From positions 51,126 through 115,125 of IMG/VR virus record IMGVR_UViG_3300009285_002342: a stretch of 64,000 nucleotides of DNA; one strand, 5' to 3'. Of the stretch, positions 1-16,293 are shown piece after piece. The stretch comes from a virus. The translations under genes and the position numbers were made by a program. A model generated the notes under the pieces. That model was not told where the DNA came from. It ran no database searches and saw only the letters and a list, made by a program, of their open reading frames with translations. The first letter of the stretch is position 1, and each line of letters opens with the position of its first letter.

Positions 1-2151
1 CTTACAGCCTTCAAAAAAGGAAATTCTATATGGTTCAAATTCTTTCGGATCGCGCTTCTTGCCGATAACCTTTAAAACATTATAACCATCGGTAGCAGAA
101 AAACCCGCTAAGTCAATCATAGACCGCATCATTTGTTCCTGATAGGCCATTACGCCATAGGTTGATTTTGTAATTTCTTCGTACTTCGGATGTAGCGGAA
201 TCCATTCCTCGCCATGTTTTCGCTTAACATATAAATCGGCCATTCCCGATTCTAACGGCCCGGGCCTAGCTAAAGCGCCGATAGCTACAATATCGTTAAA
301 TTCATCGGGTTTCATTTCTTTACATAATTTTTTACAGGCATAACCAGACATTTGAAATATTCCGGCGGTATCGCCTTCCGAAAGCATTTTATAAACCTTC
401 GGATCGTCTAACGGAATATTCTCAATATCCAAATTATCTATTATCTTAACCGCTTCGTCTATAACGACTACGGTACTTAGTTTTAAAACGTCAATTTTTA
501 CCAGTCCCGCGTGTTCATCGCAATCCACCATATCCCAGTTTATTACAATATTATCGCTACGGCGAACTAAATTGCCCCTCGTCCCGTCCCTTAGATCTTC
601 TCCGGAAATTATCAATCCTGCTGGATGTCTTCCACTCGAACGGCATTGTCCTTCTAATTCGCAAGCTAAACGGAGTTGATCTGGATATCGTACTGCAAAC
701 TTTCGCCCCTCTCTTGTACTCTCTGCTGCCGCTTTTATAAGTCCGGTAGCATGTCCTTTCCCCTCTATGTTTTTAGCAAATTCGTCTATATCATTTTCAT
801 CTAACTCAAAGACACGGCCTACGTCTCTAACAGAAGAACGACTTTTCATCCTCATAAACGTACTAATTCCTACGACATTATATTCCCCATATTCTTCTAC
901 AAGATGTTGTTGTATTTTATCGGTTTGAGTATTATCAAAATCAAGATCAATATCCGGAAGTGATTTTCTATCTTCGGAAATAAAACGCTCAAATAAAAGA
1001 TTATATTTTATCGGGTCTATCACTCTTGTTATTCCGGCGAGCATCGAAGTAAGTGAACCTGCAACCGATCCTCTTCCAGGCCCAACAGGTATCTTCGCTT
1101 CCTTACAGTATTGAATCAATTCATAGATAATAAGAAAATAACGAGAAAAGTTTTTATGCTGAATAACTTGCATTTCCCTCTTGTATCTTTCTCTATATCC
1201 TTCGGGCCATCTTTTTCCGAAAATCTCTTCGCCGCCTTTTTCGCATATTTCAGCTAAAATATCTTCGGCGGTTAAATCCGGATTCGCCTTTTCGTATCGG
1301 GTAAGCGGAAGGGAAGGAATCATTTTAGGAACTCTAAAATCCCAACACTTCTCCGCTATTTCTACTGTTTTCGTTAAGGCTTCGTAATACTGTTTTCGAT
1401 TTAAGATATTTTGTGCTTTAAATTCAGAGACCATTTCGTCTGCGGTTCTTAGATGTAAACCTTTAAAACCGAATTTCCACCTATCCGGATCTTTCCATTT
1501 CGCTTGTCTTTGCACAGCTAAAAGAACTTCTTGAGCTTCCCATTGATTTTCGTACACGTAATGGCAGTCGTTCGTCGCTATAAGCGGAATATTGTATTTT
1601 TCTGAAAGTTGTAGACAAAGGTTATTTATCTTAACTTGTGAGGCAATTTGATGTGGCATTACCTCTAAGTATATTTCTGTTTTTTCGATTAGATCTTTAA
1701 AAAGTTCTTCGCCATTAGGCAGATTAAGAAACGAAGACGAACATCCCGTAAGTAAAATTAAACCGGAAAGATCGGCGCTTCTTAGCAAGGGAAAATCTAT
1801 TCTCGGTCTACGGTTAAAACCTTCTAAGTTCGCTACGGTTAGCATCCGATTAAGTTCTTGCCAGCCTTGTAGATTTTTTACTAAAACAGTAATATGTCCC
1901 CTAGATTCTTTTCCAGTAGACTTCATATCGGGTACACAATATAGCTCAGTCCCGAGAATTGGCTTTATTCCTACTTTATCGAAAGCTTTCTGCCATTTTA
2001 TATGTGTATCTATATTGGAATGATCAGTGATAGCACAGGCTTTAAACCCTAATTCTACATTTCTTTTTGCGTATTGTTCCGGTTTGCCGATCCCGTCAAG
2101 GAGGCTGTATTCCCCGTGCACGTGCAAATGTATAAAATCGGAATTATTCAT
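1..2151 (-). CDS. dnaE: DNA polymerase III alpha subunit (family C), runs off the window edge
   Basis: Not in the ORF track. Manual translation from ATG at 2151 gives MNNSDFIHLHVHGEYSLLDG (PHP domain), then VGPGRGSVAGSL and FERFISEDRKSLPDIDLDF. Confidence 0.95.
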   Translation of the reverse strand, partial: MNNSDFIHLHVHGEYSLLDGIGKPEQYAKRNVELGFKACAITDHSNIDTHIKWQKAFDKVGIKPILGTELYCVPDMKSTGKESRGHITVLVKNLQGWQELNRMLTVANLEGFNRRPRIDFPLLRSADLSGLILLTGCSSSFLNLPNGEELFKDLIEKTEIYLEVMPHQIASQVKINNLCLQLSEKYNIPLIATNDCHYVYENQWEAQEVLLAVQRQAKWKDPDRWKFGFKGLHLRTADEMVSEFKAQNILNRKQYYEALTKTVEIAEKCWDFRVPKMIPSLPLTRYEKANPDLTAEDILAEICEKGGEEIFGKRWPEGYRERYKREMQVIQHKNFSRYFLIIYELIQYCKEAKIPVGPGRGSVAGSLTSMLAGITRVIDPIKYNLLFERFISEDRKSLPDIDLDFDNTQTDKIQQHLVEEYGEYNVVGISTFMRMKSRSSVRDVGRVFELDENDIDEFAKNIEGKGHATGLIKAAAESTREGRKFAVRYPDQLRLACELEGQCRSSGRHPAGLIISGEDLRDGTRGNLVRRSDNIVINWDMVDCDEHAGLVKIDVLKLSTVVVIDEAVKIIDNLDIENIPLDDPKVYKMLSEGDTAGIFQMSGYACKKLCKEMKPDEFNDIVAIGALARPGPLESGMADLYVKRKHGEEWIPLHPKYEEITKSTYGVMAYQEQMMRSMIDLAGFSATDGYNVLKVIGKKRDPKEFEPYRISFFEGCK

Positions 2152-2946
2152 TATCGGAAAAATCCTTTGGCTGGTATTTTATGATTTTTAATTCTTTCAG
2201 AAGCCTTTTTGTACATCTCTTCGTCTTTTTCGATTAGGATATAGTTTCTTTTTGTATTAAGACAAGCAATACCGCTAGTACCGCTTCCTGCGCAGTTATC
2301 AAGAACCAAATCACCTTCAATCGTATATGTTTTAATTAGATATTCAAATAACGGTACTGGTTTTTGGGTAGGGTGAATGCCTCTTTCCCTAGGATATAAT
2401 AAAATACTTTCTGGATATTTTGTATCGTATGTTTTTTTTAAAATCTTCTTTTCTACTATTTCCGCTAAATTTAGCACTTTCCGAAGAACATTTGTTTGCC
2501 CCGTTTTTAATTTTTTTATATCTCGGTATCATTTTTGGAAAATAATTTATGCTCCCAAAACAAAAAACCAAAACATCCTCGTGAACTTTCATAGGAGCGT
2601 ATTTAGCAGTAACAAAATTCCCTGCAAATTTCTTATTCCAAACCCAAGAATGTTTGTAATTGTTAATATTACTCATTACTAGCGCTGAAGTAAAAGGTTG
2701 AGATGACGTAAGGATTATCGCACCATTATCTTTAATAATTCTCCTATACTGTTTCCATAACGATTCAAAAGGAATAATCACATCCCATTTACAGGCGGTA
2801 GTGCCGTAAGGTGGATCGCACAAAACCATATCAATACTCTTATCTTCAATATATTTCATCGCTTGAAGACAATCGGCATTAATAAGGCTGTTTACTGGCA
2901 ATCGCCCTACGGATATAACCTCTTTAATATTATTAAAAATATTCAT
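2151..2946 (-). pseudogene. Beta-class amino (N6A/N4C) DNA methyltransferase split by a frameshift in an A8 tract
   Basis: ORF 2389-2946 has DMVLCDPPYGTTACKWD. ORF 2151-2477 has HPTQKP and VLDNCAGSGT. Removing one A from the run at 2432-2439 joins them (..EDFKKTYDTKYP..). Confidence 0.85.
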
Positions 2947-3553
2947 TAATTTTCGCTTTTATCAGTTCCCATTCACTTTGATTAATATCTACTTTTGTTC
3001 TATTTTCTAACCATGAGACAAATTGTAAATTATCTAATAATAACGCCCCTCCGTTACACTTTGCTTTTATATGATCTAAAGACGGTTTAATCCATTTATC
3101 TCTCGAAACTCGCCATTTTTCTAAAAGGGTATTAAATTTTTTGTCATTATAAAACTTTTCAATAAACTGCTTATATATTTCCGTTGTAAATCCGTTACAA
3201 TCTCGTTTTCTAGAAAGTGAACGATTAAGATATTTTAATTTTTCAATATCTTCAAAACTATTAAGCCATTCAAGCGATACATCATATTTTAAATGAGATT
3301 TCATATTTTTTAATTTAAAATCCCTTGTCATTTTTTTACCCTTTGACCACGCTTCTCTCCCTTTACAAGCTCTACTAATATTGTTTTTATGTTCCTGCGT
3401 AAATTCTTTAAGAGTGTTCCTTCTTGTTATTTTAATCCCTTCTTTTTCTAATTTTCTTCTAATTAAATGATGATTTGTATTAAACTTCTCCGCTATCATC
3501 CTTAACGTCCATCTTTCTATTTCGTATAATCGAATTATCTCTTTGGTATTCAT
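2933..3553 (-). CDS. HNH homing-endonuclease-like protein with N-terminal HTH/NUMOD3-like region
   Basis: C-terminal PSLDHIKAKCNGG..DNLQFVSWLENRTK HNH signature; AT-rich. Confidence 0.75.
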   Translation of the reverse strand: MNTKEIIRLYEIERWTLRMIAEKFNTNHHLIRRKLEKEGIKITRRNTLKEFTQEHKNNISRACKGREAWSKGKKMTRDFKLKNMKSHLKYDVSLEWLNSFEDIEKLKYLNRSLSRKRDCNGFTTEIYKQFIEKFYNDKKFNTLLEKWRVSRDKWIKPSLDHIKAKCNGGALLLDNLQFVSWLENRTKVDINQSEWELIKAKINEYF

Positions 3554-3595
3554 AATAATTATTCCCCCTATTAATATAATATCCGTACCTTATAA

Positions 3596-3700
3596 CTAAA
3601 ATAGAAAGTTATATGGCAGATCACAAAGGATCATATCAATAGTCCGGTCAGGAATATTATCCATAAGTTTTAGGCAATCACCTAACCAAAATTCACTCAA
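3596..3700 (-). pseudogene. N-terminal stub of a DNA amino-methyltransferase, ending just after DLPY
   Basis: Manual translation from TTG 3700: (M)SEFWLGDCLKLMDNIPDRTIDMILCDLPYNFLF*. Confidence 0.8.
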
Positions 3701-4230
3701 AATTCATTTCTCCAAATTTCCTGAAATCTACCGATAAACATGTTATTCGCTTCTTTCGAAGGAACTCCGAAATTCCAACTTAACCTTAATCTTGCTCCGC
3801 TAATATTCCAAGGCGCAGGTGGTTTCAGCATTAAAGCGTCCATTTCATTTCCTAAGATAACCGTATCCGCAAATTTTACTTCTTCGGAAAACGGATAGGT
3901 AATACCGAACCGATTAGCAATAACGATATTTAACTTTTCTTCAATCTTAGCGTATCCCTTTAGAAAATGTTTAATCGGCTTAGGTACATCCAAAAGATAC
4001 GCTTCCGAGGCATCGTGCAAAAGTCCTTGTAAAGCATATCTTTCGGGAACGTGAAAGGAGACTAAGACAGAATGCTCAGCGACCGAATAAAACTTACGGC
4101 AATGCCCATTATACCTACACTGATTCGACAAGGACCAAGCGATATCCAAAATATCTATTTCTTCTGAACTAGGATCTAAAGGGTAGAATTGCTTGCCTGT
4201 ATAAGTTTGAATCCAGTCGCCTTTTCTCAT
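3697..4230 (-). CDS. HD-domain 5'-deoxynucleotidase (YfbR/YfdR-like)
   Basis: CRYNGH..YSVAEHS..LLHDASEAYL.D.P.P.K motifs. Confidence 0.85.
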   Translation of the reverse strand: MRKGDWIQTYTGKQFYPLDPSSEEIDILDIAWSLSNQCRYNGHCRKFYSVAEHSVLVSFHVPERYALQGLLHDASEAYLLDVPKPIKHFLKGYAKIEEKLNIVIANRFGITYPFSEEVKFADTVILGNEMDALMLKPPAPWNISGARLRLSWNFGVPSKEANNMFIGRFQEIWRNEF

Positions 4231-4718
4231 TTTCGTCTCTCCAAATACATAGAATGGGTTGAGCGAAATTCGCCGGATTCTATGCTTTCTTTAACAGATT
4301 TTTGAAACTTTCTTATTGCGTCCATATTACTCTCGCAATTAATGGTTAATTTCGGTTCTACAATATTATTCCAATAAAGCCACCAAGTTGGAGATATATA
4401 CCAAGAATACTTATCCGCCTTATATAGCATACGCAAACCACAATATCCAGAATGTGAACAATGAGCGGCTGTAAAAATATAAGCTTTTCTTCCAAAAAAC
4501 CGACCTGCTACTTTAGCTCCTAATTCCCAATGCTTTTTCTTTTGTTCATAATCGCTTAAATAATCTTTACCTATATGCCCGATATCGTGGAGAAAGATAC
4601 AGATAATTTGCCAAAATTTAGGCCAACTCCCGTAAAGTTTTCTCCACGATATTAGGACTAGGAAAGAATGGAAAACAGAATGGCATCCAATTAGGATACT
4701 TACCGTTCCTTCCTTCAC
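4227..4718 (-). CDS. HD-superfamily protein of unknown function
   Basis: H..H, FLHDIGH, H, H and ADK metal-ligand pattern. Confidence 0.55.
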   Translation of the reverse strand: MKEGTVSILIGCHSVFHSFLVLISWRKLYGSWPKFWQIICIFLHDIGHIGKDYLSDYEQKKKHWELGAKVAGRFFGRKAYIFTAAHCSHSGYCGLRMLYKADKYSWYISPTWWLYWNNIVEPKLTINCESNMDAIRKFQKSVKESIESGEFRSTHSMYLERRK

Positions 4719-4722
4719 GATC

Positions 4723-5793
4723 TTATCCCCTTCCCCTTTTCTTCGGTTCGGGTTTTACTTCGGTTTCCACGGGTTCTTCGGTCGTCGGAGCTTCTTCCTC
4801 GTCTGCAATAAGACAGACGGCGTGTCTGAAATTGTCCCCTTCGAAAAGCAAAGCACCGTCAGATACCGTCGCTTTATTCGCCTTCGGAATAATCGAAGAG
4901 AGATGTTCAGGGGAAGCGACAAATTCAATCTTTTTCCCTTTGTACTTTATCGGGACCGGTTCTATAGCTTTTCCTTTTATGTTTTCGCACTTCGCAATGA
5001 TTTCCCAGTTATCTACCGTAATCGTTACCCGCTTCAACTTATTCGATTCTTCGGCTAAAACCTGTACCCTGGACAAGGCTGCACAAAGTTCTACCGGAAA
5101 ATCAATCTTCTTTCCTTCTACGTTCAGATATTCGTCTACGTCTTCAAAGTTATCGTCTATCAGCGTATGCGCAAAGATAGCCCCGTCGTGATTTCGGTAG
5201 ACGGCTTGCGAATCCGTAATCAGAATTTCCTTTAGCCCGAAGGTAGAAAGAAAGTGTGCGATTTTTGAGGGAATAAGAATCGGTTTTTCTAAATCGATTT
5301 CTTCGGAAAGAATCCTTTCGGTAATACGGAAGTTATCGGAAGACAAAATCCTTTTTCCATCTACGGAAAGACATGTTAAAACGCCCATAGACGCTTGATC
5401 ACTCGCGGAGAAGGTACAAAAACCTAATGCTTCGTCGAAATCCTCCGGTAACGGTCGCCAATCCTCCTCTTCAAAATCGAAAGAAGGTATATCTTTCGCT
5501 TCTACCATCTTCAACCATACTTCCGTCTTTCCTGCCTTAACGTGTAACTCCTTTTCGTCCGCGTCAATTTCCATGTCTTCCTGGCTGAATTTGTTAAGCA
5601 ATCTCGTAAATTCATCCGCAGGAATCACCGCCTTTAGATCGGTATCCAAAGGTACGCAAATCGTGATTTCTTCGCCAGCTCCGATAAGTTTATCATTATC
5701 GAAGATTAGCATTCCTGAAAGTTCGGAAATTTTACCGTCGCTTAAAGCCGGTTTTACCTTTTCAATCGCACTTAAAAGTTCTTTTCGTTTCAT
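4723..5793 (-). CDS. Sliding clamp (DNA Pol III beta-like)
   Basis: 356 aa, acidic, N-terminal RKELLSAIEKV, SSDNFRI resembling the clamp ATDGxRL motif; lies near dnaE. Confidence 0.7.
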   Translation of the reverse strand: MKRKELLSAIEKVKPALSDGKISELSGMLIFDNDKLIGAGEEITICVPLDTDLKAVIPADEFTRLLNKFSQEDMEIDADEKELHVKAGKTEVWLKMVEAKDIPSFDFEEEDWRPLPEDFDEALGFCTFSASDQASMGVLTCLSVDGKRILSSDNFRITERILSEEIDLEKPILIPSKIAHFLSTFGLKEILITDSQAVYRNHDGAIFAHTLIDDNFEDVDEYLNVEGKKIDFPVELCAALSRVQVLAEESNKLKRVTITVDNWEIIAKCENIKGKAIEPVPIKYKGKKIEFVASPEHLSSIIPKANKATVSDGALLFEGDNFRHAVCLIADEEEAPTTEEPVETEVKPEPKKRGRG

Positions 5794-6518
5794 TCTTTCT
5801 CCTTCCGTTTAAGTTTTCTCTCCTTTAGTGGTCTTACTGGAATTATTCCGAATCCTAGATTTATTTGTTTTACTTTAGTCAAATCTTCATATCTCTTAGA
5901 TTCACCTTTAGGATAATGTAAAATCGGAAATCTAAGATGTTTCCTTGCTTCCTTTGCCCATCTTTTATCGCCATGAAAATAAATATATCTATGTTTAGGT
6001 TTTTGAGGAATTCTTTCTTCTATTTTTCCTTCGTATCTTTCACCGCGAATTTTTCCAGTACAAGATCTTCGATGAATTATTTTCCCTTCAGTAGTAAGAT
6101 ATTTCCCTTCGTTAAAAGATCCTTCTCCGGTATAAATCCAATTTAGAGCTTGATAAACATAACCTACATGCCCTTGATTTTGGTCTGCGTAACTCACAAG
6201 GATAAGAGGTTTAGGTAGCAATTTTATTGCATTAGCAGCAAAAAAGGTGGCAAGATTTTTTCTTTCTGAATAATCAATACAAAGCCGGTTAAATTCTAAA
6301 ACAGTATCTTTATAATCTTTTCCGCAAACAGAAGCCCCTAAATTCCTATTAGGGCAATATCCAAAAGTCGCTACACCTATCGTTCTATTTTTTTCTTTTT
6401 CGACCAACGCAAATCCATAAATATTCACTGTAGGCGCTCTACCTGCATAATGCTTTTTTAAAAGCCATTCTTTTGCTGCCAAACATGGAATCGAAACTAT
6501 CCGGAATTTATCTTTCAT
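5790..6518 (-). CDS. Mom-like GNAT adenine-modification protein
   Basis: KHYAGR, GVATFG, LEFNRL, LVSYADQNQGHVGYVYQALNWIYTG, KHRYIYF. Start set at MKDKF (SD AGGAAGG); the longer track ORF reads through a repeat element. Confidence 0.8.
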   Translation of the reverse strand: MKDKFRIVSIPCLAAKEWLLKKHYAGRAPTVNIYGFALVEKEKNRTIGVATFGYCPNRNLGASVCGKDYKDTVLEFNRLCIDYSERKNLATFFAANAIKLLPKPLILVSYADQNQGHVGYVYQALNWIYTGEGSFNEGKYLTTEGKIIHRRSCTGKIRGERYEGKIEERIPQKPKHRYIYFHGDKRWAKEARKHLRFPILHYPKGESKRYEDLTKVKQINLGFGIIPVRPLKERKLKRKEKE

Positions 6519-6520
6519 AT

Positions 6521-6615
6521 CCTTCCTACGCTTCGTAGAATCGCTTAGGTTAAACGATCTATCGCTAACCCATAATACCCTACGGGTAAAATATTTGAAC
6601 GCCTTAAAAACGATT
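6521..6615 (+). repeat. Dispersed ~95-bp intergenic element, copy A
   Basis: Core CTTCGTAGAATCGCTTAGGTTAAACGATCTA...TACCCTAC...TTAAAAACGATT. Confidence 0.9.
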
Positions 6616-6648
6616 AAGCGAAGAATCCGCTTCGTTTCCCTTTTTTCT

Positions 6649-6831
6649 TCAATTCTGACATTTGGTAAGTTTTCCTTGACAACCTTTAGCACCGCATACA
6701 TTAGGCAAGACCCAACGAAACTTTTTATTTTTCGCTACCCAAAAACCTTGCTTCGAACCGCATATTTCACATTCATACCAAGTAGTCTGTTTCTTCTCTT
6801 CTTCAGTTTCTTCGTCCCTACACATTTGCAT
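6649..6831 (-). CDS. Small Zn-ribbon protein
   Basis: CEIC...C.AKGC; AGGAG SD upstream of ATG 6831. Confidence 0.55.
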   Translation of the reverse strand: MQMCRDEETEEEKKQTTWYECEICGSKQGFWVAKNKKFRWVLPNVCGAKGCQGKLTKCQN

Positions 6832-6842
6832 TTTTAACTCCT

Positions 6843-6968
6843 TTACATACCCCAATATGCCGGCGAAGTCACGCACATATCAGCTATTCCGGAAGGTAGG
6901 GATTTTAAGACATCTATATTGTGCCCTAAATATATTTTAGAATCACCGAATTCACGATAAGGTTTCAT
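6843..6968 (-). pseudogene. Second amino-MTase N-terminal stub (frameshifted, ends after an SPPY-like motif)
   Basis: MKPYREFGDSKIYLGHNIDV, frameshift at GTCTTTAAAA, then LKSLPSGIADMCVTSPAYWGM*. Confidence 0.7.
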
Positions 6969-7726
6969 ATTTTTGATCTTACCTTCCGAATAGCAATAGG
7001 ATTCATTTTTTTCTTAAACGCACGTAAAGACTCGTTCCCTAAATCCCCACAATCATTTACGTATTTTCCGTTTCCGTATTCTGCCACTTCCCGATAAAAC
7101 AGCAACCTCATATATTCAGCTAAGTACGGTTCCGCTAAACAAATTGAATAGCGGAAAATTAGATATTTGAAATTCTCATCCCAAACATTTAAGCCGACAA
7201 CTTTCTTCCTCTCCATGTCTATCAGAACTTTTCGATTTTTACCGTTTAGACAAAAATCTAACAATACTTCCGCATCTTCAATTTGTCTAAAACGCAAAGT
7301 CCATTCCGTTAGAAGATCGATAATCGGCGTTACAGGATGCCCCACTACGGCACGAAGATAAGTTAATTTCGGATTTCGGGCAACGAACTTCCGACTATTT
7401 TTACGAAACACTGCCCACTCCCCTCCTTTCATAGTGAGAAAATCGGCAGGATCGTAAATATACTCATAGTCAAGAAATTCGTTGCCCAACGGGCATTCCG
7501 GAAAGTCAGCCCAAAAAGGAGAGTCTTTCCAAAGTGGATTGCCCATTTTTCGGATAACCGGAAACAGTATTTGTTTTCCCTTATCTTCAACCCAAACTTC
7601 GCTTCCGGTATCGTAAACACGAAATTCGGCCCTATCGAAATATTCCTCCGAGCACCAGCAATTCGGCGTTATTCCGTTAAGGCGAAGAATTTCTAAATAT
7701 TCTTTCGGACTAATCAGTTTTTTCAT
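6965..7726 (-). CDS. DUF2156-like GNAT-fold protein (aminoacyl-transferase-like)
   Basis: DYEYIYDPADFLTMKGGEW..FRKN.RKF and YVNDCGDLGNESLRAFKKKMNP resemble the DUF2156 motifs (DYIY..DL..L.G; YINREEDLG..GLR..K.S..P). Confidence 0.6.
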   Translation of the reverse strand: MKKLISPKEYLEILRLNGITPNCWCSEEYFDRAEFRVYDTGSEVWVEDKGKQILFPVIRKMGNPLWKDSPFWADFPECPLGNEFLDYEYIYDPADFLTMKGGEWAVFRKNSRKFVARNPKLTYLRAVVGHPVTPIIDLLTEWTLRFRQIEDAEVLLDFCLNGKNRKVLIDMERKKVVGLNVWDENFKYLIFRYSICLAEPYLAEYMRLLFYREVAEYGNGKYVNDCGDLGNESLRAFKKKMNPIAIRKVRSKI

Positions 7727-8574
7727 TATCTTCGAAGAAACCCCGTTCCTTTTTGCCTTTTAACGGTTTCTTTTCTTTCTTCGCCTTCTCTGCTATCAGC
7801 CGTTGAATCAGCTTCTTCGACACCCCGCCCGATTTCCTCGATTTCCCGCCCATTTTCTTCCTCCTGTATTGATTCTAAGAAACATCCTTCGTCATACAGA
7901 CAACCCGCGACAATTCCTTTCATTCCAAACTTATCCCCTTCGATTACTGCAAAATCATTCTTCTTACCGAAGAAAAACTTTACAGTATTCGAAAATGTAA
8001 AAAGGGCTAAAAGATCGGCGGTCCTTAATCCTATCGGCCCGAAGTCTTCTTTTATCGTCTTCCCCCATGATACCCCGAAACCCTCTTTCACTTGCGTTAA
8101 TTCTACGGTAGAACCGGAATAGATGTCCCTTTGTAGAAGAAGCGGTTTCCGATTCTTAGCTGAAACCTCAATATGACTAAGGCTTTCTTCTAAAAGAGAA
8201 AGAACTTCGGTATGCAAATCCAAACGGTTATCGCCTTTTTTCTTATAAAGTTTCCGAAAAGAATCATCTATTTCGTCAAAAGTCCGCTTAGAAGTAGCAC
8301 AAGATTTTTTTCTTACGAAACCAGCGGCGTTTTGCGTAAATACAATTTTCCCGTCTATTAACTTAAAATCCGGCGAATCGTACTGATTAGATTCCATACC
8401 GATCTTTTCAGGAAATTCTTCTTTCGAATCAAAATGCAGAATAACTGTATTGTCGAAGTTGGCTATGTAGATAGACTTATTTCCTAAGAAGACTTCGTTT
8501 CTTAAATGCCCATTTTGAGTTAAGACTACTGCTATAGAAAGTATTTTTTCGGTCATTTGATTAATCATAAACAA
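7726..8574 (-). CDS. Hypothetical protein in the modification operon
   Basis: 282 aa, overlaps both neighbours; acidic/basic tail. Confidence 0.5.
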   Translation of the reverse strand: MFMINQMTEKILSIAVVLTQNGHLRNEVFLGNKSIYIANFDNTVILHFDSKEEFPEKIGMESNQYDSPDFKLIDGKIVFTQNAAGFVRKKSCATSKRTFDEIDDSFRKLYKKKGDNRLDLHTEVLSLLEESLSHIEVSAKNRKPLLLQRDIYSGSTVELTQVKEGFGVSWGKTIKEDFGPIGLRTADLLALFTFSNTVKFFFGKKNDFAVIEGDKFGMKGIVAGCLYDEGCFLESIQEEENGREIEEIGRGVEEADSTADSREGEERKETVKRQKGTGFLRR

Positions 8575-9974
8575 TCCTCCAAAATTCTTATTCTAAAATC
8601 GTCTTCCTTTTCATATTTCCAGATTATCCTTCCTTCGGAATCATTCCCCACCGGTACTATCCCCCTTCCCCAATCCAGCGAATAAGAAGGATTTCCGCTA
8701 AGGTTCCACAATCCAAAAAATTCCTGCTTAAGATTTTCAGAAAGGAAACCCCCGTTTTCTTCTACATACTTTTCGTATTCATCCCAAGTTACCGCCCGTC
8801 CTTTCTGGTTTTTTATGTACCAGATCGCAGACACAGAACTTCCGCGATTAAATTTTGAATCCGGAAAGAAATCCCCCACTTCGCAACATATCTCGTTTCC
8901 GTTTTCCGCTACATTCCCTAAGTCGAAAGTAGAACAACGGAATCCCTTTTCTCTAAAAAGGTCCATAAACTTTCCTAGAAGAAGGGAACCAAGGGCTTGA
9001 CTATCGGAAGTAAGCAGATACATCCGGTTAAAATCATATCCTAAATTCGTAAAGTTATTACGGATACCTGGATTGTTGGCGGAATAGGAATATGTATCGA
9101 AGGTAATGTGTCGAACGCCGGCCGCATAAACTTCTTCAATATATTTTTCGACGAATTCCTTTTCGTCATTTATGAAAACCATCCACGGCTCTATCCTAGC
9201 CACAACCCTTATCCCAGCAGAAGATAAAATGCGCATCGCCTCTAACCGCTTTTTGTAAGAAGGCGCTCCCGGCTCTATCGCTTTTAAGATCCGGTTGTCT
9301 GCGGAAATCAAAGTAACGTGTACTGCAGCTTTAGAAGGATTATCCGCTAAAGCGGAAAGGTAAGGTTCTTCGGCAGGTAAATCCGATTTAGTATTTATCA
9401 TTATCGGATAATTTCTGTCTTTTAGATGATTCAAAAACGCTAACGCTATTCCGTTCTTCCTTTCTGCGTAAATAAAATCTTCGAATCGAATTCCTAACCG
9501 AATCGGAATACGGTTTTTTATCGCTCTTTGAATATCGGAAGCATTTAACGGAAGTCCCTTAGCGACAACCTCAAAATGCCTATCCAGTTCCGCACGAAAA
9601 TAATCAGGCGGGCAAGATCGTATTCCCATTTCCTCAGTTCTATCCCAAAAGGAAGTGTACAATGTCGCTTTTAGTATATCCGCGAAGCAATATTGGCAAC
9701 GGAAAGGGCACGCCTTTGCGTCATAGCAATCCGCATTGAGGGGCATCGGGCAAGCGGCTGCCCGAAGACTAACCTCAATAAAATGTTTAATCCTTTCCGT
9801 GTTAAATATCTTCTCTTTGTTTTGCCACTTTTGCCTTATCAGATTAAATTCATGATAATTTGTTTTTCTGCCTTTAATCTTAACTTCGGATTTCAATTTG
9901 TCTTTAACGGAAGTTAGAATCTTCTGTCTGGGAATCAGTTTAGAAACTAAAGATCGCAATTCGTAATAATTCAT
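8565..9974 (-). CDS. Radical SAM protein (SPL-like family), paralog 1
   Basis: CPFRCQYC, INTKS, IEPGAPSYKKRLEAM..L..AGI, RIEP. Confidence 0.85.
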   Translation of the reverse strand: MNYYELRSLVSKLIPRQKILTSVKDKLKSEVKIKGRKTNYHEFNLIRQKWQNKEKIFNTERIKHFIEVSLRAAACPMPLNADCYDAKACPFRCQYCFADILKATLYTSFWDRTEEMGIRSCPPDYFRAELDRHFEVVAKGLPLNASDIQRAIKNRIPIRLGIRFEDFIYAERKNGIALAFLNHLKDRNYPIMINTKSDLPAEEPYLSALADNPSKAAVHVTLISADNRILKAIEPGAPSYKKRLEAMRILSSAGIRVVARIEPWMVFINDEKEFVEKYIEEVYAAGVRHITFDTYSYSANNPGIRNNFTNLGYDFNRMYLLTSDSQALGSLLLGKFMDLFREKGFRCSTFDLGNVAENGNEICCEVGDFFPDSKFNRGSSVSAIWYIKNQKGRAVTWDEYEKYVEENGGFLSENLKQEFFGLWNLSGNPSYSLDWGRGIVPVGNDSEGRIIWKYEKEDDFRIRILEDCL

Positions 9975-10954
9975 AATGGATAGTTACTTTCTATTTCGGC
10001 AATTTCGTCATCGGCAAGTTCTATTTTTACGGATTTAAGATTGTCTTTTAGATGCTCTAAATTATTTGTAGCTGGAATTGGAAGGACACCTTTCTTGCTT
10101 AAAAGCCAAGATAATGCAATTTGTGGCGATTTGCCTCCCTTTGATTTTGCTATTTTGTCTAAAATTGGTTTGTGTAATTTCTTATATGATTGCCCCAAAG
10201 GGCTATAGGCAATAACCAATATCCCCCTTTCTTGACAATACGGCAATAAAAATTCTTCTATACGCCTATCAATAAGCGAATAACTGACTTGAACGGAACG
10301 TATAACGTCACCAGAAAAATCAGAAAGAAATCTTTGCATTGATTCAATCATATCTACCGAACAATTACTAAGACCTATAGAAAGAATCTTGCCCTTTTTA
10401 CGCAATCCAACTAAAGTTTTACCTAAAACCTCGTCCGAATACTTATCGTTAGGAAAGTGAATTTGCAAATGGCTAACCCTTCCTAACTTTTCTAAAGATC
10501 TTGAAACGGTAGAAGTAAGTGCAGAAGATGACATATGATCCCTTCGAACTTTTGTAGCTACGGGAATTGAAATGTTTTTTAGTGCTTTCCCCAATTCTGT
10601 TTCTACCTTACCGTATCCGTATCCTTCTGCGGTATCTATCAATACAGCGCCGAAATTTACCGCTTCTTCTATAAGACTATAATCATATTTCCAACCATAT
10701 GTCCCGAAACCAATACCGCATTTACATTCGATTTCCATTGGTTTAAAAGAAATATCCTGGTGGTCTAAAAGTTTTTCTAAACGCCTAACCGAATATTGAA
10801 GTAATTCTTTTCTTTTAATCAAAAGCGCAGAAGATAAAGACATATAGCGTAGATTAAGTCCCCACATCGATCCGTGCAAAACATCTGAAGCCCCTGCGCT
10901 TAATTTCTTATCAAAAGAAAAGTTTTTTATTTCGTCAAGTATTTTTAACCACAC
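9971..10954 (-). CDS. Aldo/keto reductase with N-terminal extension
   Basis: IGFGT, IDTAEGYG, ATK, QIHFP, IGLSN, AYSPLG, PIP motifs; D/Y/K/H tetrad present. Confidence 0.9.
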   Translation of the reverse strand: MWLKILDEIKNFSFDKKLSAGASDVLHGSMWGLNLRYMSLSSALLIKRKELLQYSVRRLEKLLDHQDISFKPMEIECKCGIGFGTYGWKYDYSLIEEAVNFGAVLIDTAEGYGYGKVETELGKALKNISIPVATKVRRDHMSSSALTSTVSRSLEKLGRVSHLQIHFPNDKYSDEVLGKTLVGLRKKGKILSIGLSNCSVDMIESMQRFLSDFSGDVIRSVQVSYSLIDRRIEEFLLPYCQERGILVIAYSPLGQSYKKLHKPILDKIAKSKGGKSPQIALSWLLSKKGVLPIPATNNLEHLKDNLKSVKIELADDEIAEIESNYPL

Positions 10955-11664
10955 AATCCAAAACCTTTCAATTTTGCTTTCTTTGGTTTGAATTCTTCAT
11001 GCCCCCTAGAAACAAACAAATCGGAAGGTTGAATATGCGTAATCTTTCCTTTTTCATTTCCATACAAAACCATAGCGGCATTCATAAAAGCGGAAACAGC
11101 TATGAGATTTTTCCCAACAATCGGTTTTGTTTCCTTAGCCAACAATTCGTAGTATTCCTCTTCGGTTTTAACGCCATAATGACGGAGATTCCCGAACTTA
11201 AAACCAAAACAAGTGCTATCGGCTATTATAACCCATTTTGCTGTTTTCGCTACTCTTGACAATACTTCGCTATGTCCAGGCAACTTACGCAAAGTAAAGG
11301 CGTCAAAATCCAAAATTAGAATGTCCGATTCCGGCGGCGTCCAAGAATAAACATCGTTATTCAATACAGTGTGGTTTGGAAAATTACTTTTCAAAAAACC
11401 ACAACAATTTTCGTCCTTATCGTTAATAATCAATTCACAATCAGTCCATCTTGTTAACGAAACAGCGCACCAAAAACCAGATCTAGCTATAGCGTCTACG
11501 ATTTTTGGTTTCTTTCCACAATTTATTACAGACAAAACTGCATCAAGCGTTCTACAAGTTTCCGCTACATCACGGTACGGAACAACTTGGCTAGGTGTCC
11601 TTATCTTTCTTTCTGTCCCTGATTCGGGAATGTCAAGTTTTATTTTTCCTACGGAATAAATCAT
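10945..11664 (-). CDS. Possible SAM-dependent methyltransferase-fold protein
   Basis: IVDAIARSG, LIINDKD, NNDVY and DILILDF match the Rossmann MTase strand pattern (degenerate). Confidence 0.4.
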   Translation of the reverse strand: MIYSVGKIKLDIPESGTERKIRTPSQVVPYRDVAETCRTLDAVLSVINCGKKPKIVDAIARSGFWCAVSLTRWTDCELIINDKDENCCGFLKSNFPNHTVLNNDVYSWTPPESDILILDFDAFTLRKLPGHSEVLSRVAKTAKWVIIADSTCFGFKFGNLRHYGVKTEEEYYELLAKETKPIVGKNLIAVSAFMNAAMVLYGNEKGKITHIQPSDLFVSRGHEEFKPKKAKLKGFGLCG

Positions 11665-12731
11665 AGCCCACTATCCTTCATTGTGTAATGATTTTTTGAT
11701 TTACCGCACATAATCAATTCTGCGTTTTTTAAATCTTCTTTTGTCCCAATTCCTTCCCAGGTAGTTTCTAAAATAGTTTTTCTATCTAAACCTTCTTGCA
11801 GCAATTTTCTCCAATTGTGAGTGTTAAATTTGAAAGCATTTTTTATGTCTATTCCGCAACAAGTGTTAAGATTAGATACCCAATTTTTCGGAAGGTTGAC
11901 AAAATCCGGACATCCAAGATTTATATTTTCCTTGTCTGCAATTTCGCACAATTCCTTCTGAACAGGTTTCCATTTTTTATCCTGATTAGCGTCCCATATT
12001 TTTTCAATATCTAAACCTATATCCAAAAGACGTTTTGCAGTATAAGGATTCAAATGTAAATTGTAGATATTGTAAGACATAAAACCATAAGACTTGATAA
12101 GTTTAAGAATATCTTTAAATTGCGAAACAGTATGATACCCAGGAATAAAAGGTTCCCCCCTTATTCCAACATTTAACCCCAATCTCAACCATTCTTTTCC
12201 TATCATTAAACGATCTTTAATCGGAGAGGTTCTTTTCCTTTCGAATATTTCCCAATCAGATTCACAGCCAGCAGTTATTTCGATTAAAAAACAGAAGCAA
12301 TCTTTTTTTGTCTTAACAAATAAACCCGTATCCCTTAAAGCATTAGAAATGTATCTTGAACAAATTACGAAAGGCCAAGATAAATCTATCAGAACCTTAA
12401 CGCTGTTTCTAGTTACTTTGTGCTGATTTTCTATCGATTGATAAGGATCAGCTTTCCTTCCTAAAAATATTGCCTTTTTCTTTTTTAACGCAATAGCTAA
12501 GGGAGATTTTGGATCTTTTGATCTTTGAGAATCTGTTAATTTTTTACAGATTTGTTCTGGATTTGCTATCCGTTGTTCTTCGCCCCAAATCTTGTTAAGG
12601 TTTCTGCCTAAGCAGTGAAAACAATCTGCTTCACAAGCCCAATAAGATTCAAGAGTCAACGGAAGTGGACAATTTAGATGGGTTTTTCTAATACAGAAAG
12701 GATTTTTATATTCTTTCAAGTTATTCACCAA
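11661..12731 (-). CDS. Radical SAM protein, paralog 2
   Basis: CPLPLTLESYWACEADCFHC, ADPYQ.IE....VTR, RGEPFIPG, CCG. Confidence 0.85.
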   Translation of the reverse strand: MVNNLKEYKNPFCIRKTHLNCPLPLTLESYWACEADCFHCLGRNLNKIWGEEQRIANPEQICKKLTDSQRSKDPKSPLAIALKKKKAIFLGRKADPYQSIENQHKVTRNSVKVLIDLSWPFVICSRYISNALRDTGLFVKTKKDCFCFLIEITAGCESDWEIFERKRTSPIKDRLMIGKEWLRLGLNVGIRGEPFIPGYHTVSQFKDILKLIKSYGFMSYNIYNLHLNPYTAKRLLDIGLDIEKIWDANQDKKWKPVQKELCEIADKENINLGCPDFVNLPKNWVSNLNTCCGIDIKNAFKFNTHNWRKLLQEGLDRKTILETTWEGIGTKEDLKNAELIMCGKSKNHYTMKDSGL

Positions 12732-12736
12732 GAATT

Positions 12737-12772
12737 AATTAGGGACTCGGTGAATTTTCCGAGTCCCTAATT
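12737..12772 (-). terminator. Perfect 14-bp hairpin, probable terminator
   Basis: AATTAGGGACTCGG-N8-CCGAGTCCCTAATT. Confidence 0.65.
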
Positions 12773-12786
12773 TCAGAAGGGATTTG

Positions 12787-13461
12787 TTAGACAGGGGCTA
12801 CAGTCTTGGGATCAATCTTGGATACCTTACCGAATCCTATTGCACAAGGCATCATTACATCGACAAGATGTTTCGACTGTTTAAGGTTATCCTTACCGCC
12901 GCCAGAAACATAATCGTTATTGGCGAGTTCGGCCAAATCATCAATGGAAATTTGACACTTGAGATTATTGACGACATCAATGAACGATTCGGTTCTTGTC
13001 TTCTTGGAAGACGTTGCCTTCGGTGCTTTCGGTTCCTTCGGCGGCTTAGGCGGTTTTTCAGCCTTTGCCAGTTTTTCTACCTTTTCGGTTTTCGCGGGTC
13101 TACCACGTTTTCCCTTTTGAACAGGCGGATCTTTCGGAAGCTTCTCTCTGGCCAAAAGGATTGCTGTCTTTGCATCGTCCAGTCCCAACTCCCCGAGCAG
13201 CTCAACGGTTTCGTCGCTCAGATTCGCATCCCCCGGCGTCTTCTCCGGATCGATTAGTTCCGCTGCTTCCGTAACCAAAGCGGTCAACTTCTCGATCAGC
13301 GCATCTTCGCCTTCCGCCTCTGCCTTCGCGATTGCTTCCTTTCGCGCCTTTCCCTTTACCCCGTCCTCTACCAAACACCCGTAGGTAATGTCGATAGGCG
13401 GTTTAAGAACAAGAATCCGATTCATGTCCTCTGCGGCGTTTTGCAATACTTTAAGTTCCAT
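12787..13461 (-). CDS. Hypothetical protein with Lys/Pro/Ala-rich linker (AT-hook-like KRGRP)
   Basis: Has its own promoter, strong SD (AGGAGG) and terminator. Confidence 0.55.
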   Translation of the reverse strand: MELKVLQNAAEDMNRILVLKPPIDITYGCLVEDGVKGKARKEAIAKAEAEGEDALIEKLTALVTEAAELIDPEKTPGDANLSDETVELLGELGLDDAKTAILLAREKLPKDPPVQKGKRGRPAKTEKVEKLAKAEKPPKPPKEPKAPKATSSKKTRTESFIDVVNNLKCQISIDDLAELANNDYVSGGGKDNLKQSKHLVDVMMPCAIGFGKVSKIDPKTVAPV

Positions 13462-13523
13462 ACCGTTTCCTCCTTTTTCCGTTAAAGTTTTTTATCGGTA
13501 AAAAATTTACCCTATCCAATGAT

Positions 13524-13552
13524 ATTATAACGAAAAAATTAAATATTTTAAA
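13524..13552 (-). promoter_or_regulatory. Sigma70-like promoter TTTAAA-17-TATAAT
   Basis: Same architecture as 63869-63897. Confidence 0.5.
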
Positions 13553-13609
13553 GGCGCACGGCGATTTTTTTATAAAAAAATTAAATAAAAAATTCCGGGA
13601 GGTTACGCC

Positions 13610-14415
13610 TTATTTTCCCCAATGCTTGCTTTCAACCCCCCCAATAATATCAAATCCTTCCTTCGTATTATAAACTCCCTTCGCATCATACCAATTTTGC
13701 AAAAATTCTTCAAACGTATTTTCTATCGCCCTACCTTTTAATTTCCCGTTCCAAAGTTCTAACATTGCTCTTTCAAACGCTCTGTAAATTCCGGGCCATC
13801 TATCCATATGTTTTTTAATAACTTTGGGTCTTCCACATATAAACGGACAAACAACACAACCAACTCTATCGAAACCCTGATCGTAAAGTTCGCAATAAGG
13901 TAAATTATATTTTTCAATATATTCCCAAATTGCCCATTCTCCCCAATTAAAAATTGGTTTATATAGAGTCTGTTTTTTAAAATACCGGTCTATTCTTGGT
14001 CTATTCGCTCTTTTGGCAGATTCTTCTTTTCTAATACCCATCAATCTTCTCTCAAGAGAAACCTCTTTAGTTGGTTTTTTCTTTAACTCGTCACAACACC
14101 ACCTTGAAAACTTTGTAGGAAATCCTCTTATCGGAATCAATTCATAAAATGATTTTTCAGGTTTTTCCATATTACATCGGAATGATTCCTTTTTATAAAC
14201 TTTACAACTTCCGGCGGATCTATTCCGGTAACGGAATAATAAGTCTGAAATTTTACGCCTGAACGTTTAGTTAAATCTTTTAAGACGCAAGAATCCTTTC
14301 CACCGGAAAATCCTAAAAAATAACCTTCCAGAGGTTCATTTTTTTGGATAAAGGTTATCGCTTCCTCTTCGTATTTTTCCAGAAAATCTATAAACCCTTT
14401 AGTTGTTTTTCTCAT
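13610..14415 (-). pseudogene. PAPS-reductase-family protein split by a frameshift
   Basis: 14137-14415 has FSGGKDS. 13610-14170 has RWCC..LKK, GIRKEES.KR and RVGCVVCP. A one-base shift near 14165 (ATATGGAAAAAC) joins them. Confidence 0.8.
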
Positions 14416-15989
14416 TACGCTTCCTTTTTAGCGGTCATTAGGTAACTGTCTAAATATGGCCTTCCGGTACGCAAAGACTGTAAGATCATAATTTCCGAAG
14501 AAGATACGGTTTCGCCGTGTCGCCGTTTAGAAATCGAAGCCCGAATTATTCCGGCGTCTTTTTCCCAAGAAGACTGATTAAAAGAAGCCCCATCGTCTAA
14601 TTCGTGAATCTTATCTATCGCTTCCCCCCACGTTCCTCTTCCTACCTGTTTTCCGCTACGCATTGTATTAGATTGCGAAGCGGAAGCCACTAAGCAGTTT
14701 AATTCTTGCGCTACTGCTTTATGTTCCCTCCATATCTTTCCGATAGAAACCCTAGGGTCTTTCGGAATTGCCCATTTGAATTTATCCGCATAATCCGTTA
14801 CGATTAATCCCGGTACTATCCCTTCGTAGTAAACCAGATTCTTTACCGCAGCTACCATATCTTCGGTTGTATATTTCCCGTTCGGAAATTCGATTAAACA
14901 GAACTTACCGGCTTTACGTAGCATCCCGCTTCGATCCAATACCGCTTGTTTCCGTAAGGCTACGTTCGGATCTAATAAACCTGGATCTTCGGTTTCCGTC
15001 CACCACGCAGTCGGTTCGAATTCATTCCTGCCTTTACAGGCTGTGCAAACTTTATATCCCCTAGGCATATCTTTAAAAGACGGACGAAGTTTGTCTTTAA
15101 GTAACGCTACGCCACATCCATTCGCACACGTCCCGAGTTGATTTTTCTTACAATCCCAAATCGGTATTAAAAGTTTACCGTGTCTTTCGATAGGCGCGGA
15201 AGTAAGGGATTGCCATATTCTTTTTACCATCTTCTTCGTAGACATTTCCATAGAAAAGAATACAACGTTGTGCCCCGAGAAGACGGCTAACTGCGCCATA
15301 TACGTTAACCACCAAGTCTTTCCTACTCCGGATTCGGCTTGTACCGCGAAAAGGAAACCCCTTTCTAACGGCCCTAAAGCATTTCCTAAAGCACCCGGAA
15401 GCCTCATAATAATATCCGGATTTTCGTCTTCCGGCGTTAAGGATTCTACAATACAATCAATATCCCGTAAAGGATCTACGGAAAGGATTAACGGCTTCGC
15501 TGGTTTCTCGTATTCTTTAACGCAGTTTTCCCCTTCGTCCAACTTCCCGGCAATAATCGCTGCGGTAAGTTTATCGCGAAGGTTCTTTAGACCGGCAGCT
15601 CGGAAGTGTTTTTCTGCTTCTGATATTATGTAATCCACATTAAAGGTTTCCGAAAGTTCGTATTCATCCGAAATCGAAGCTAAAAAATCCTCTAATAATT
15701 CCGCGTCTTCTTCGGGAACAGAAGCTTTGTGCGTAAGGTAGATATCTTCAATATGTCTAACCGGCGCTTTATTGAACTTTTCGAAATACTCTAAGCACCA
15801 TTGCGCTATTTTCCGTGCATAGTTAGACTGAAAATATTCCAGTTTACAAAGTGGTTTTACGCCTTTCGCGAATCGGTCAGAAGTTACTAAGCCGATACAA
15901 ATCATTCTTTCGATTTTCGCGTCTACTTCGGTCGGCCTGCGCCGGATACCCGTACCGTCCGGACCGGCTAAAATCATCGCTCCGCTCAT
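14415..15989 (-). CDS. DnaB-like replicative helicase with Cys-rich insertion
   Basis: AESGVGKT, FFSMEM, IVTDYAD, SASQSN. Confidence 0.85.
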   Translation of the reverse strand: MSGAMILAGPDGTGIRRRPTEVDAKIERMICIGLVTSDRFAKGVKPLCKLEYFQSNYARKIAQWCLEYFEKFNKAPVRHIEDIYLTHKASVPEEDAELLEDFLASISDEYELSETFNVDYIISEAEKHFRAAGLKNLRDKLTAAIIAGKLDEGENCVKEYEKPAKPLILSVDPLRDIDCIVESLTPEDENPDIIMRLPGALGNALGPLERGFLFAVQAESGVGKTWWLTYMAQLAVFSGHNVVFFSMEMSTKKMVKRIWQSLTSAPIERHGKLLIPIWDCKKNQLGTCANGCGVALLKDKLRPSFKDMPRGYKVCTACKGRNEFEPTAWWTETEDPGLLDPNVALRKQAVLDRSGMLRKAGKFCLIEFPNGKYTTEDMVAAVKNLVYYEGIVPGLIVTDYADKFKWAIPKDPRVSIGKIWREHKAVAQELNCLVASASQSNTMRSGKQVGRGTWGEAIDKIHELDDGASFNQSSWEKDAGIIRASISKRRHGETVSSSEIMILQSLRTGRPYLDSYLMTAKKEA

Positions 15990-16023
15990 ATATGGGAAAC
16001 TTTCTTTAAAGGTTTCTGCATCC

Positions 16024-16293
16024 TTATCCCCTTTCGAATCTTCGTTTTTTCGGTAGAAGCGAACAACCTTTATCGCACTCTAAGGAAATCCAAGATTGCG
16101 CTACTGACCAAGTATAATTAACCAAAGCACCGCAAAGCGGACATTTATCCTGTCCTTGAATATAGTCCGCAGTATTATCTCGGAAATGTTTAAGTTTACG
16201 GGAAAGAAAAGTCGGTATAGATTCCGTTTGTACTGCGGACTTTTTGAGTAAGCCGAATCCGGTCATAGTTATTTTCCTACGAAGAAAATACAT
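16024..16293 (-). CDS. Small Zn-finger protein
   Basis: CPLC..C..GC; likely start at MTGFGLL. Confidence 0.5.
   Translation of the reverse strand: MYFLRRKITMTGFGLLKKSAVQTESIPTFLSRKLKHFRDNTADYIQGQDKCPLCGALVNYTWSVAQSWISLECDKGCSLLPKKRRFERG

Follow-up and report, generated by a model that had tools for sequence, protein, structure and literature searches.

Phages evade restriction and other nuclease defences by hypermodification of their DNA, and these modifications also provide new enzymes and new chemistry of nucleic acids. To our knowledge, every characterised pathway of the amino-acid type starts from 5-hydroxymethyl-dU (5-hmdU), a DNA kinase and an amino acid:DNA transferase (ADDT). In phage M6, gp51 (ADDT) and gp54 (5-hmdU DNA kinase, HMUDK) install glycine on 5-hmdU, gp53, a radical SAM (rSAM) enzyme resembling spore photoproduct lyase (SPL), isomerises the N-linked adduct to the C-linked one, and gp52 decarboxylates the thymine-bound amino acid in DNA to give 5-aminoethyl-dU (5-NedU); gp52 and gp53 act on DNA polymers, and no rSAM enzyme other than gp53 is known to install a DNA modification (PMC8989533). 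The Mom protein of phage Mu, a GNAT, uses Gly-tRNA(Gly) to glycylate N6 of deoxyadenosine in double-stranded DNA (PMC13219725). Here we analyse a cassette of genes from the replication region of an uncultured phage, represented by the single-contig, 115,125-bp virus record IMGVR_UViG_3300009285_002342. The window under study is the final 64 kb of this record (64,000 nucleotides, positions 51,126 to 115,125), and coordinates given below without further specification refer to it.

In our opinion it is rather probable that in a large clade of uncultured DnaE-type phages this cassette performs a clamp-tethered, post-replicative hypermodification of DNA bases, fed by charged tRNA. The grounds for this reading are the synteny and co-occurrence of the genes, a PCNA-like clamp that is dispensable for replication and has a clamp fold at Z 15-16, a pyridoxal phosphate (PLP) enzyme similar to gp52, rSAM proteins similar to gp53, the fold of a transferase for which Mom provides a precedent, known DNA modifiers in the second variable slot, and the missing entry enzymes of the M6 pathway. 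A preliminary description of this DNA, made from the sequence alone, had proposed a novel hypermodification pathway in an anaerobic host. A conserved, undescribed and probably DNA-directed module in the replication operon, with two rSAM paralogs and an aminoacyl-tRNA-type transferase, survives from that proposal, while the list of its members, the gene called unknown, the relation to 5hmU pathways and the anaerobic host had to be revised.

A conserved cassette in the replication operon

The run of six minus-strand open reading frames (ORFs) from 12731 to 6965 is real, with overlaps of 1-10 nt, and it does lie between the helicase gene and the genes of the clamp and DnaE (Table 1), both as initially described; all genes within positions 1-20,000, the module included, are on the minus strand. 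The replisome gene that bounds the module on its clamp side is that of the beta clamp. Comparisons with Pfam, NCBIfam and protein structures confirmed the rSAM, aldo-keto reductase (AKR), Mom and DUF2156-fold assignments and lent support to that of the methyltransferase (MTase) fold; however, a 47-aa gene had escaped notice, the gene of the 3'-phosphoadenosine 5'-phosphosulfate (PAPS) reductase turned out to be frameshifted, and that of the N6/N4 MTase is split as well.

Table 1. Genes of the cassette and its surroundings in the window
Feature	Position	Strand	Evidence and remarks
DnaE	1-2151	minus	Flank of the module
Beta-class N6/N4 DNA methylase, split over two overlapping frames	2151-2946	minus	DPPY in N-terminal part, SAM motif in C-terminal part
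Two HD-domain ORFs, 177 and 163 aa	3697-4718	minus	HD motifs visible; Pfam matches below cut-off
Beta sliding clamp, three-domain type	4723-5793	minus	E 1.6e-6 to solved beta clamps over ~230 residues; PF00712 weak
Mom-like GNAT, accessory	5790-6701	minus	PF25680 E 6e-33, 114.6 bits (cut-off 27.1), full profile; phrog_1384 E 2e-50
Cys-rich (CxxC...CxxC), zinc-ribbon-like ORF, 75 aa, unique to this phage	6649-6876	minus	
DUF2156-fold tandem-GNAT, putative aminoacyl-tRNA-dependent transferase, 253 aa	6965-7726	minus	AlphaFold2 (AF2) model, Foldseek
Tiny peptide, 47 aa	7710-7853	minus	N-terminus MGGKSRK.G..S..L, K-rich linker, C-terminal RGFFED
PCNA/gp45-like two-domain sliding-clamp protein	7726-8574	minus	AF2 fold, residues 1-228
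rSAM-B, 469 aa (rSAM469), most conserved core gene	8565-9974	minus	PF04055 34.2 bits (cut-off 29.5)
AKR, 327 aa, optional tailoring gene	9971-10954	minus	PF00248 E 1e-42
MTase-fold protein, 239 aa, optional tailoring gene	10945-11664	minus	ESM Atlas neighbours
rSAM-A, 356 aa (rSAM356), core gene, PA0069/'DNA repair photolyase' type	11661-12731	minus	CxxxCxxC; NCBIfam PA0069 E 9e-12
orf224, conserved, between DnaB and rSAM-A	12787-13461	minus	In 34 of 49 flanked loci
PAPS-reductase-like gene, frameshifted, accessory	13610-14415	minus	PF01507 E 3e-21, 76.6 bits, in C-terminal part; SGGKDS loop in N-terminal part
DnaB-like helicase	14415-15989	minus	PF03796 E 1.3e-10; upstream boundary of the module; syntenic in relatives

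The family profile of the transferase retrieved 80 further viral contigs, to which four contigs found earlier with rSAM queries were added, and all these loci were mapped by tblastn and de novo clustering. More than 80 viral contigs have this gene order, which is far beyond chance, and it is the same in nearly all of the loci retrieved with the transferase profile: DnaB, orf224 (for which no significant family was found), rSAM-A, a variable slot, rSAM-B, the PCNA-like gene, the transferase, a second variable slot, the beta clamp and DnaE, followed by the clamp loader, two conserved genes and RecA. Both the core order and the co-occurrence persist across sequences only 30-50% identical. Co-occurrence was counted in 49 loci, that of the window included, with DnaB on one side and the beta clamp gene on the other. 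The genes of rSAM-B and the PCNA-like protein occur together in 46 of 46 cases, and rSAM-A or its alternative form rSAM-A2 is found in 46 of the 49 loci; the three loci devoid of the rSAMs and the PCNA-like gene retain the transferase. The neighbourhood analysis of the rSAM pair, which had been suggested at the outset, thus revealed a conserved linkage to the transferase, the PCNA-like gene and the peptide.

This undescribed module is widespread, with over 100 viral contigs in which it occurs and two unnamed protein families of 100-200 or more members each. It is absent from cultured phages and from PHROGs. No match in cultured phages was obtained with the DNA of positions 5700-13500 or with the protein sequences of the transferase and the MTase-fold protein, while rSAM-B gave one partial match and the AKR only generic ones (at most 29% identity). 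The PCNA-like protein, the transferase and the MTase-fold protein have no PHROG family and no homologue in cultured phages, and a full-text literature search found no description of the cassette. Five close matches of rSAM-B in 'genomes' come from metagenome-assembled bins of five different phyla; at least one of them equals in length (27,227 bp) a viral contig of our set, and they look like mis-binned phage contigs.

Components of the cassette

Both rSAM proteins carry the motifs that the preliminary description had reported as shared (CP.PL...CxxxCxxC, R.EP and CC), and neither family deviates from them in its alignment of 21 sequences, the cysteines of CxxxCxxC included (C33, C37 and C40 in rSAM-A; C89, C93 and C96 in rSAM-B). 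The invariant cluster motif, together with the above-cut-off PF04055 match of rSAM-B, places them in the radical SAM superfamily; rSAM-A has no Pfam match. The two families are paralogous (hhalign 98.8%, E 1e-16, 283 columns), and rSAM-B is about 50% identical between loci. Remote homology to gp53 of M6 was found for rSAM-A (hhalign 96.4%, E 1e-9, 254 columns) and for rSAM-B (87.8%, E 3e-6). Pairwise BLAST of the rSAMs against gp53, as well as against each other, gave nothing significant, so these relations are visible to profiles only. As to their wider affiliation, ESM Atlas neighbours and partial NCBIfam matches put both proteins within the broad COG1533-type 'DNA repair photolyase' subgroup, to which SPL and PA0069/Rv2578c also belong. 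However, the best score against the NCBIfam SPL/PA0069/Rv2578c equivalogs was 51.3 bits, far below the cut-offs of 360-430, and the gene context is different; judging by sequence, rSAM-A and rSAM-B are related to these equivalogs, yet not members of them.

The set of rSAM genes varies among the relatives. rSAM-A is present in 41 of the 49 flanked loci and is replaced in five by rSAM-A2 and a DUF362 protein. The alternative enzyme (377-409 aa; loci L013, L017, L023, L025, L047 and L070) is always accompanied by the DUF362 protein and takes the place of rSAM-A. A third rSAM paralog of about 484-520 aa, 21-25% identical to rSAM-B, is encoded between the transferase and the beta clamp in L011, L015, L022, L055, L058, L074 and L075, in every case with the gene of a conserved 85-118-aa protein (motif G.F.FP...FYFD) ahead of it. 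In L016, L029, L039 and L040 rSAM-B is oversized or split (566-615 aa), as is the AAA+ clamp loader in L028, L031 and L048 (657-738 aa), probably owing to inteins or homing endonucleases. A supposed third rSAM of about 310 aa after DnaE, which emerged from the first clustering, was rejected, as it is the AAA+ clamp loader; we suspect that single-linkage clustering joined this protein to the rSAMs via shared intein or endonuclease inserts.

The gene of the run that had been left as unknown encodes a PCNA-like clamp protein. Its AF2 model (predicted local distance difference test score, pLDDT, 89.4; 74-sequence alignment) is a complete clamp protomer with two DNA-clamp domains in residues 1-228, i.e. 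of the PCNA/gp45 type. Among solved structures the model matches PCNA in Foldseek (E 5e-9) and in VIA-align (Z 15.8 to PCNA, 15.2 to T4 gp45; root-mean-square deviation 3.2 over 198 residues), the latter also returning the 9-1-1 checkpoint clamp. At the sequence level the protein resembles no named family in Pfam, PHROG or the representative library; its own family comprises 214 representatives, none of them with named relatives, and the extensions of the longer forms in the library are uninformative. It shares with PCNA and T4 gp45 the full two-domain protomer fold and an acidic isoelectric point but, unlike them, is a second clamp beside the beta-type replicative one. A relative of 64,357 bp with terminal repeats, which is 100% complete, has neither the PCNA-like nor the rSAM-B gene anywhere, while DnaB, the beta clamp and the transferase are kept. 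It follows that the second clamp is dispensable for replication and belongs with the rSAMs, together with which it was lost.

The disordered tail of the PCNA-like ORF overlaps, in a different frame, the overlooked gene of a 47-aa peptide, which is preceded by AGGAGG 6 nt upstream of its ATG, lies directly upstream of the transferase gene and overlaps its start. Although the peptide has no Pfam or PHROG family, its motif was found in 79 of 85 loci, the exceptions being three truncated loci and the three without rSAMs and the PCNA-like gene. Among 42 unique sequences residues 1-7 (MGGKSRK), G9, S12 and L15 are invariant and the remainder is variable, except that after the Lys-rich linker a C-terminal motif of the G[LF][FLGD] type, which we take to be akin to clamp-binding tails, occurs in 32 of the 42, compared with 4.7 +/- 1.9 in shuffled sequences. 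The C-termini of MTase-fold orthologues end in a G/P-[FL][FL][FD]-like manner in 8 of 11 tails, against a background of 1.9%. Four ORFs of this phage, all of them in the replication region (2151-2477, 7726-8574, 10945-11664 and 21599-21751, minus strand), have ends of the K-G-F-(G/F/L) type.

The structure of the transferase was modelled with high confidence (AF2 pLDDT 95.5) and is a tandem-GNAT DUF2156 fold. The closest solved structure is 2hqy (Foldseek E 5e-10, template modelling (TM) score 0.73), and the best 24 Foldseek rows consist of DUF2156 proteins, MprF C-terminal domains, the Sbb17/Sba18 aminoacyl-tRNA peptide synthases and FemX chains, all of them aminoacyl-tRNA-dependent except the uncharacterised 2hqy; the TM scores to MprF/DUF2156, FemX and Sbb17 are 0.56-0.73. 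The PF09924 score (18.6 bits) is below the cut-off of 27.5; the family profile of the transferase matches 2hqy at E 0.0066, and a D-Y-(E/I)-Y...G.K....R.N motif is common to both. By analogy with the proteins of this fold, aminoacyl-tRNA is the putative donor. While sharing their fold, the module enzyme differs from MprF/DUF2156, FemX and Sbb17 in being soluble, 253 aa long, phage-specific and always linked to a clamp gene: its family has 109 members, all unnamed metagenomic proteins, and its gene is always upstream of that of the beta clamp, either adjacent to it or separated by slot genes only. Mom offers a precedent for the combination of a charged-tRNA donor with a DNA acceptor, and the window has a true Mom-family gene as well; Mom, however, works alone, whereas the transferase with its tandem-GNAT fold is part of a multi-enzyme cassette. 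In L080, L082 and L083 the transferase gene stands beside that of the beta clamp with no rSAMs, PCNA-like gene or peptide.

The slot between rSAM-A and rSAM-B is occupied by a PLP enzyme in 25 of the flanked loci and by an AKR in eight, as in the window, while 16 have neither, and the two are never found in the same locus. Over its full length, the PLP enzyme encoded by the relatives shares 47% identity with gp52 of M6, and its 67 homologues in cultured phages belong almost all to Yua/M6-like, Bordetella and similar phages. The AKR is a genuine member of its family (PF00248 146.6 bits, above the cut-off; D-Y-K-H tetrad visible in the translation). The MTase-fold gene, found in 11 of the 49 loci, accompanies the AKR in seven of eight. 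Its product has no Pfam or PHROG family; its structural neighbours in the ESM Atlas are MTS/N6-adenine methylases (TM 0.63-0.68), but DF(D/N)xF replaces NPPY in motif IV, and the AKR-linked subgroup has a degenerate motif I (ARSG in this phage). AKR and the MTase-fold protein, initially listed among the enzymes of the candidate pathway, are therefore optional tailoring genes (8/49 and 11/49 loci).

As for the entry enzymes of the M6 pathway, the family assignments of gp51 and gp54 were confirmed, gp51 serving as the positive example for the ADDT family (aGPT-Pplase2, PF18724). Neither this family nor HMUDK (PF18748) has a match in this genome or in five relatives, four of which are at least 94% complete, and the same five relatives contain no member of the ThyA/ThyX family, hydroxymethylases included. 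One thymidylate-synthase-like ORF of this genome is very divergent (258 aa, PF00303 25.7 bits; L085:3312-4088, minus strand, i.e. positions 36311-37087 of the genome) and has no homologue in cultured phages or the five related genomes; it may be either a synthase or a pyrimidine hydroxymethylase.

The module thus resembles the 5-NedU pathway of M6 and Yuavirus in the gp52 homologue in the slot of the relatives, in the adjacency of the rSAM and PLP genes and in the layout of an upstream Cys and CxxxCxxC common to its rSAMs and gp53. It differs in having no ADDT or HMUDK and, in the relatives, no hydroxymethylase, in possessing two to three rSAM paralogs instead of one, in the addition of the PCNA-like clamp, the tiny peptide and the DUF2156-fold transferase and, in this window, in the AKR and MTase-fold protein standing in place of the PLP enzyme. 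The opinion that the gene set does not match 5hmU-kinase pathways consequently cannot be upheld: the back half corresponds to M6, and only the front end is missing. Nor did we find support for an anaerobic host; M6 uses its rSAM enzyme in aerobic Pseudomonas (PMC8989533).

Proposed mechanism and alternative explanations

The scheme that we infer, with regard to the substrate, the base, the order of the steps and the product, is as follows. The private PCNA-like clamp would be loaded on phage DNA and serve as a platform, on which the peptide and the MTase-fold enzyme may dock via their C-terminal G-[FL]-[FL] tails. The DUF2156-fold enzyme would take an aminoacyl group from charged tRNA, as Mom of Mu does, and put it on the base or first on the peptide. 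The two SPL/gp53-like rSAMs would then use 5'-deoxyadenosyl radicals to activate a C-H bond, for which the C5-methyl group of thymine has the best precedent as a target, and so rearrange or forge the link between the amino acid and the base. Finally, the side chain would be finished by a tailoring enzyme: in most relatives by decarboxylation with the gp52-type PLP enzyme, and in this phage by carbonyl reduction with the AKR plus, possibly, an amine-directed step of the MTase-fold protein. Because of this variant the product of the phage under study should differ from that of the PLP-type relatives. The Mom-like enzyme would represent a separate, second modification system directed at adenine N6.

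A more radical version, which we put forward only tentatively and regard as doubtful, is that the module acts directly on canonical bases of newly synthesised DNA, bypassing any hydroxymethylated precursor base. In this case clamp-riding rSAMs would activate a C-H bond of the base (e.g. of the thymine methyl) and couple to it an amino acid delivered from charged tRNA by the DUF2156-fold enzyme, possibly via the peptide as a clamp-tethered carrier arm. If true, DNA hypermodification would here follow a new biochemical logic, with the PCNA-like protein as the first sliding clamp dedicated to base modification.

Several facts weigh against a clamp-tethered DNA modification. No modified nucleoside is known from the clade. 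The rSAMs are remotely homologous to gp53 (hhalign probability 87.8-96.4%, measured against one single sequence), and profile searches of PDB sequences with both rSAM families reached nothing significant, the solved SPL included. The strongest tie to DNA chemistry comes from the relatives, since the window itself has no gp52-type PLP gene; as regards a gp53-type isomerase, a gp52 homologue is adjacent in 25 of the 49 loci but not here, and ADDT and HMUDK are absent. The record is 84% complete (CheckV), so that for this phage taken alone entry enzymes may have been missed. The clamp-binding role of the C-terminal motifs is suggested by their enrichment only, and across this genome alone the GF-hydrophobic C-terminal motif is not significantly enriched (4 compared with ~2-2.6 expected). 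The persistence of the transferase in three loci without rSAMs means that it may have a separate, stand-alone job. Finally, the substrate could be the invariant tiny peptide itself.

The latter idea is the main rival, although we consider it unlikely. The 47-aa peptide would be a substrate or scaffold of the RiPP (ribosomally synthesised and post-translationally modified peptide) or pearlin kind, to which the DUF2156-fold enzyme adds an amino acid from aminoacyl-tRNA and whose added residue is tailored by the rSAM, PLP and AKR enzymes; the product would be not a DNA mark but a modified clamp-binding peptide or a released small molecule acting on the replisome or a host clamp. The invariant seven-residue N-terminus followed by a variable remainder, the strict co-occurrence with the rSAMs and the position of the gene, overlapping the transferase gene from directly upstream, would all suit such a pathway, as would the activities of known DUF2156, FemX and Sbb17 enzymes, whose acyl acceptors are amines of peptides or small molecules. 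However, Pfam shows no SPASM or RRE-type features in the rSAMs, which fall within the DNA-linked SPL/gp53 group; the PLP enzyme has 47% identity with one that acts on DNA, and the transferase is retained in loci without the peptide.

The remaining explanations fit the data worse. It is quite improbable that the module targets free nucleotides ahead of replication, or else RNA or tRNA, rather than DNA, i.e. supplies an unusual dNTP or modifies tRNA-like RNAs of the phage. Such a role would agree with the location among nucleotide and replication genes, with the divergent thymidylate-synthase-like gene and HD nucleotidase-like genes of this genome, and with the similarity of the MTase-fold protein to tRNA A37-N6 methylases; but in M6 both gp52 and gp53 work on polymeric DNA (PMC8989533), free nucleotides would hardly call for a sliding clamp of their own, and four near-complete relatives have no ThyA/ThyX homologue. 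We find it very improbable that the rSAMs are SPL-type DNA repair enzymes on a repair clamp, surrounded by unrelated genes. The placing of both proteins among COG1533-type 'DNA repair photolyases' by ESM Atlas and NCBIfam and the similarity of the PCNA-like fold to the 9-1-1 clamp are what speaks for repair; yet the NCBIfam score is far below the cut-off (51 against 430 bits), no solved SPL was matched, and repair does not need the strict linkage of two or three rSAM paralogs with a transferase, a peptide and either a PLP decarboxylase or an AKR. Finally, that auxiliary metabolic genes have gathered by chance at a permissive place in the genome, with no functional unity, is hardly credible at all: the variable slot does also collect homing endonucleases, inteins and methylases, but the core order and co-occurrence kept at 30-50% identity, the gene overlaps of 1-10 nt and the co-occurrence statistics contradict it.

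Neighbouring genes and significance of the module

The Mom, PAPS reductase, HD and amino-MTase genes, which the preliminary description had counted as parts of the pathway, are not conserved with it. The second slot of the relatives contains N6/N4 DNA methylases, the third rSAM with its small partner, and in two loci each Mom or PAPS reductase (each 2/49 of the flanked loci). The Mom-like GNAT belongs to the Mom family by its PF25680 score, has a counterpart among the relatives only in L064 and is probably an independent adenine modifier. Its called start is overlapped by the 75-aa Cys-rich ORF, for which no family and no homologue in the 84 related loci were found; since the Mom domain starts only at residue 66, the true start of the Mom gene may be internal. 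The PAPS-reductase-like gene is split at an A-run near 14160, so that the PF01507 domain is spread over two frames, and an intact homologue of 292 aa occurs only in L063. The HD ORFs have a homologue only in L006. The split N6/N4 methylase, the second frameshifted modification gene within 12 kb, reflects either a frameshift or an assembly error. Between it and the HD genes lies a 206-aa ORF (2933-3553, minus strand) with a weak NUMOD3 match, probably homing-endonuclease-like. The two conserved genes located between the clamp loader and RecA (present in over 60 loci; proteins of 190 and 394 aa; L085:13369-13941 and 12184-13368, minus strand) have no Pfam match and could encode further clamp-loader or replisome subunits.

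In general, the best-supported reading is that the module is built unlike every characterised pathway, its rSAMs replacing the front end composed of hydroxymethylase, kinase and transferase. It keeps the back-end enzymes, or swaps in an AKR and an MTase-fold protein, whereas the whole front end would have been replaced by a charged-tRNA-type transferase, two to three rSAMs, a second sliding clamp and a tiny invariant peptide. If confirmed, this would reveal a new way of modifying DNA and a new role for sliding clamps, and the phage analysed here would be an example of a virus with two different tRNA-type DNA-modifying GNATs, one Mom-like and the other DUF2156-like.

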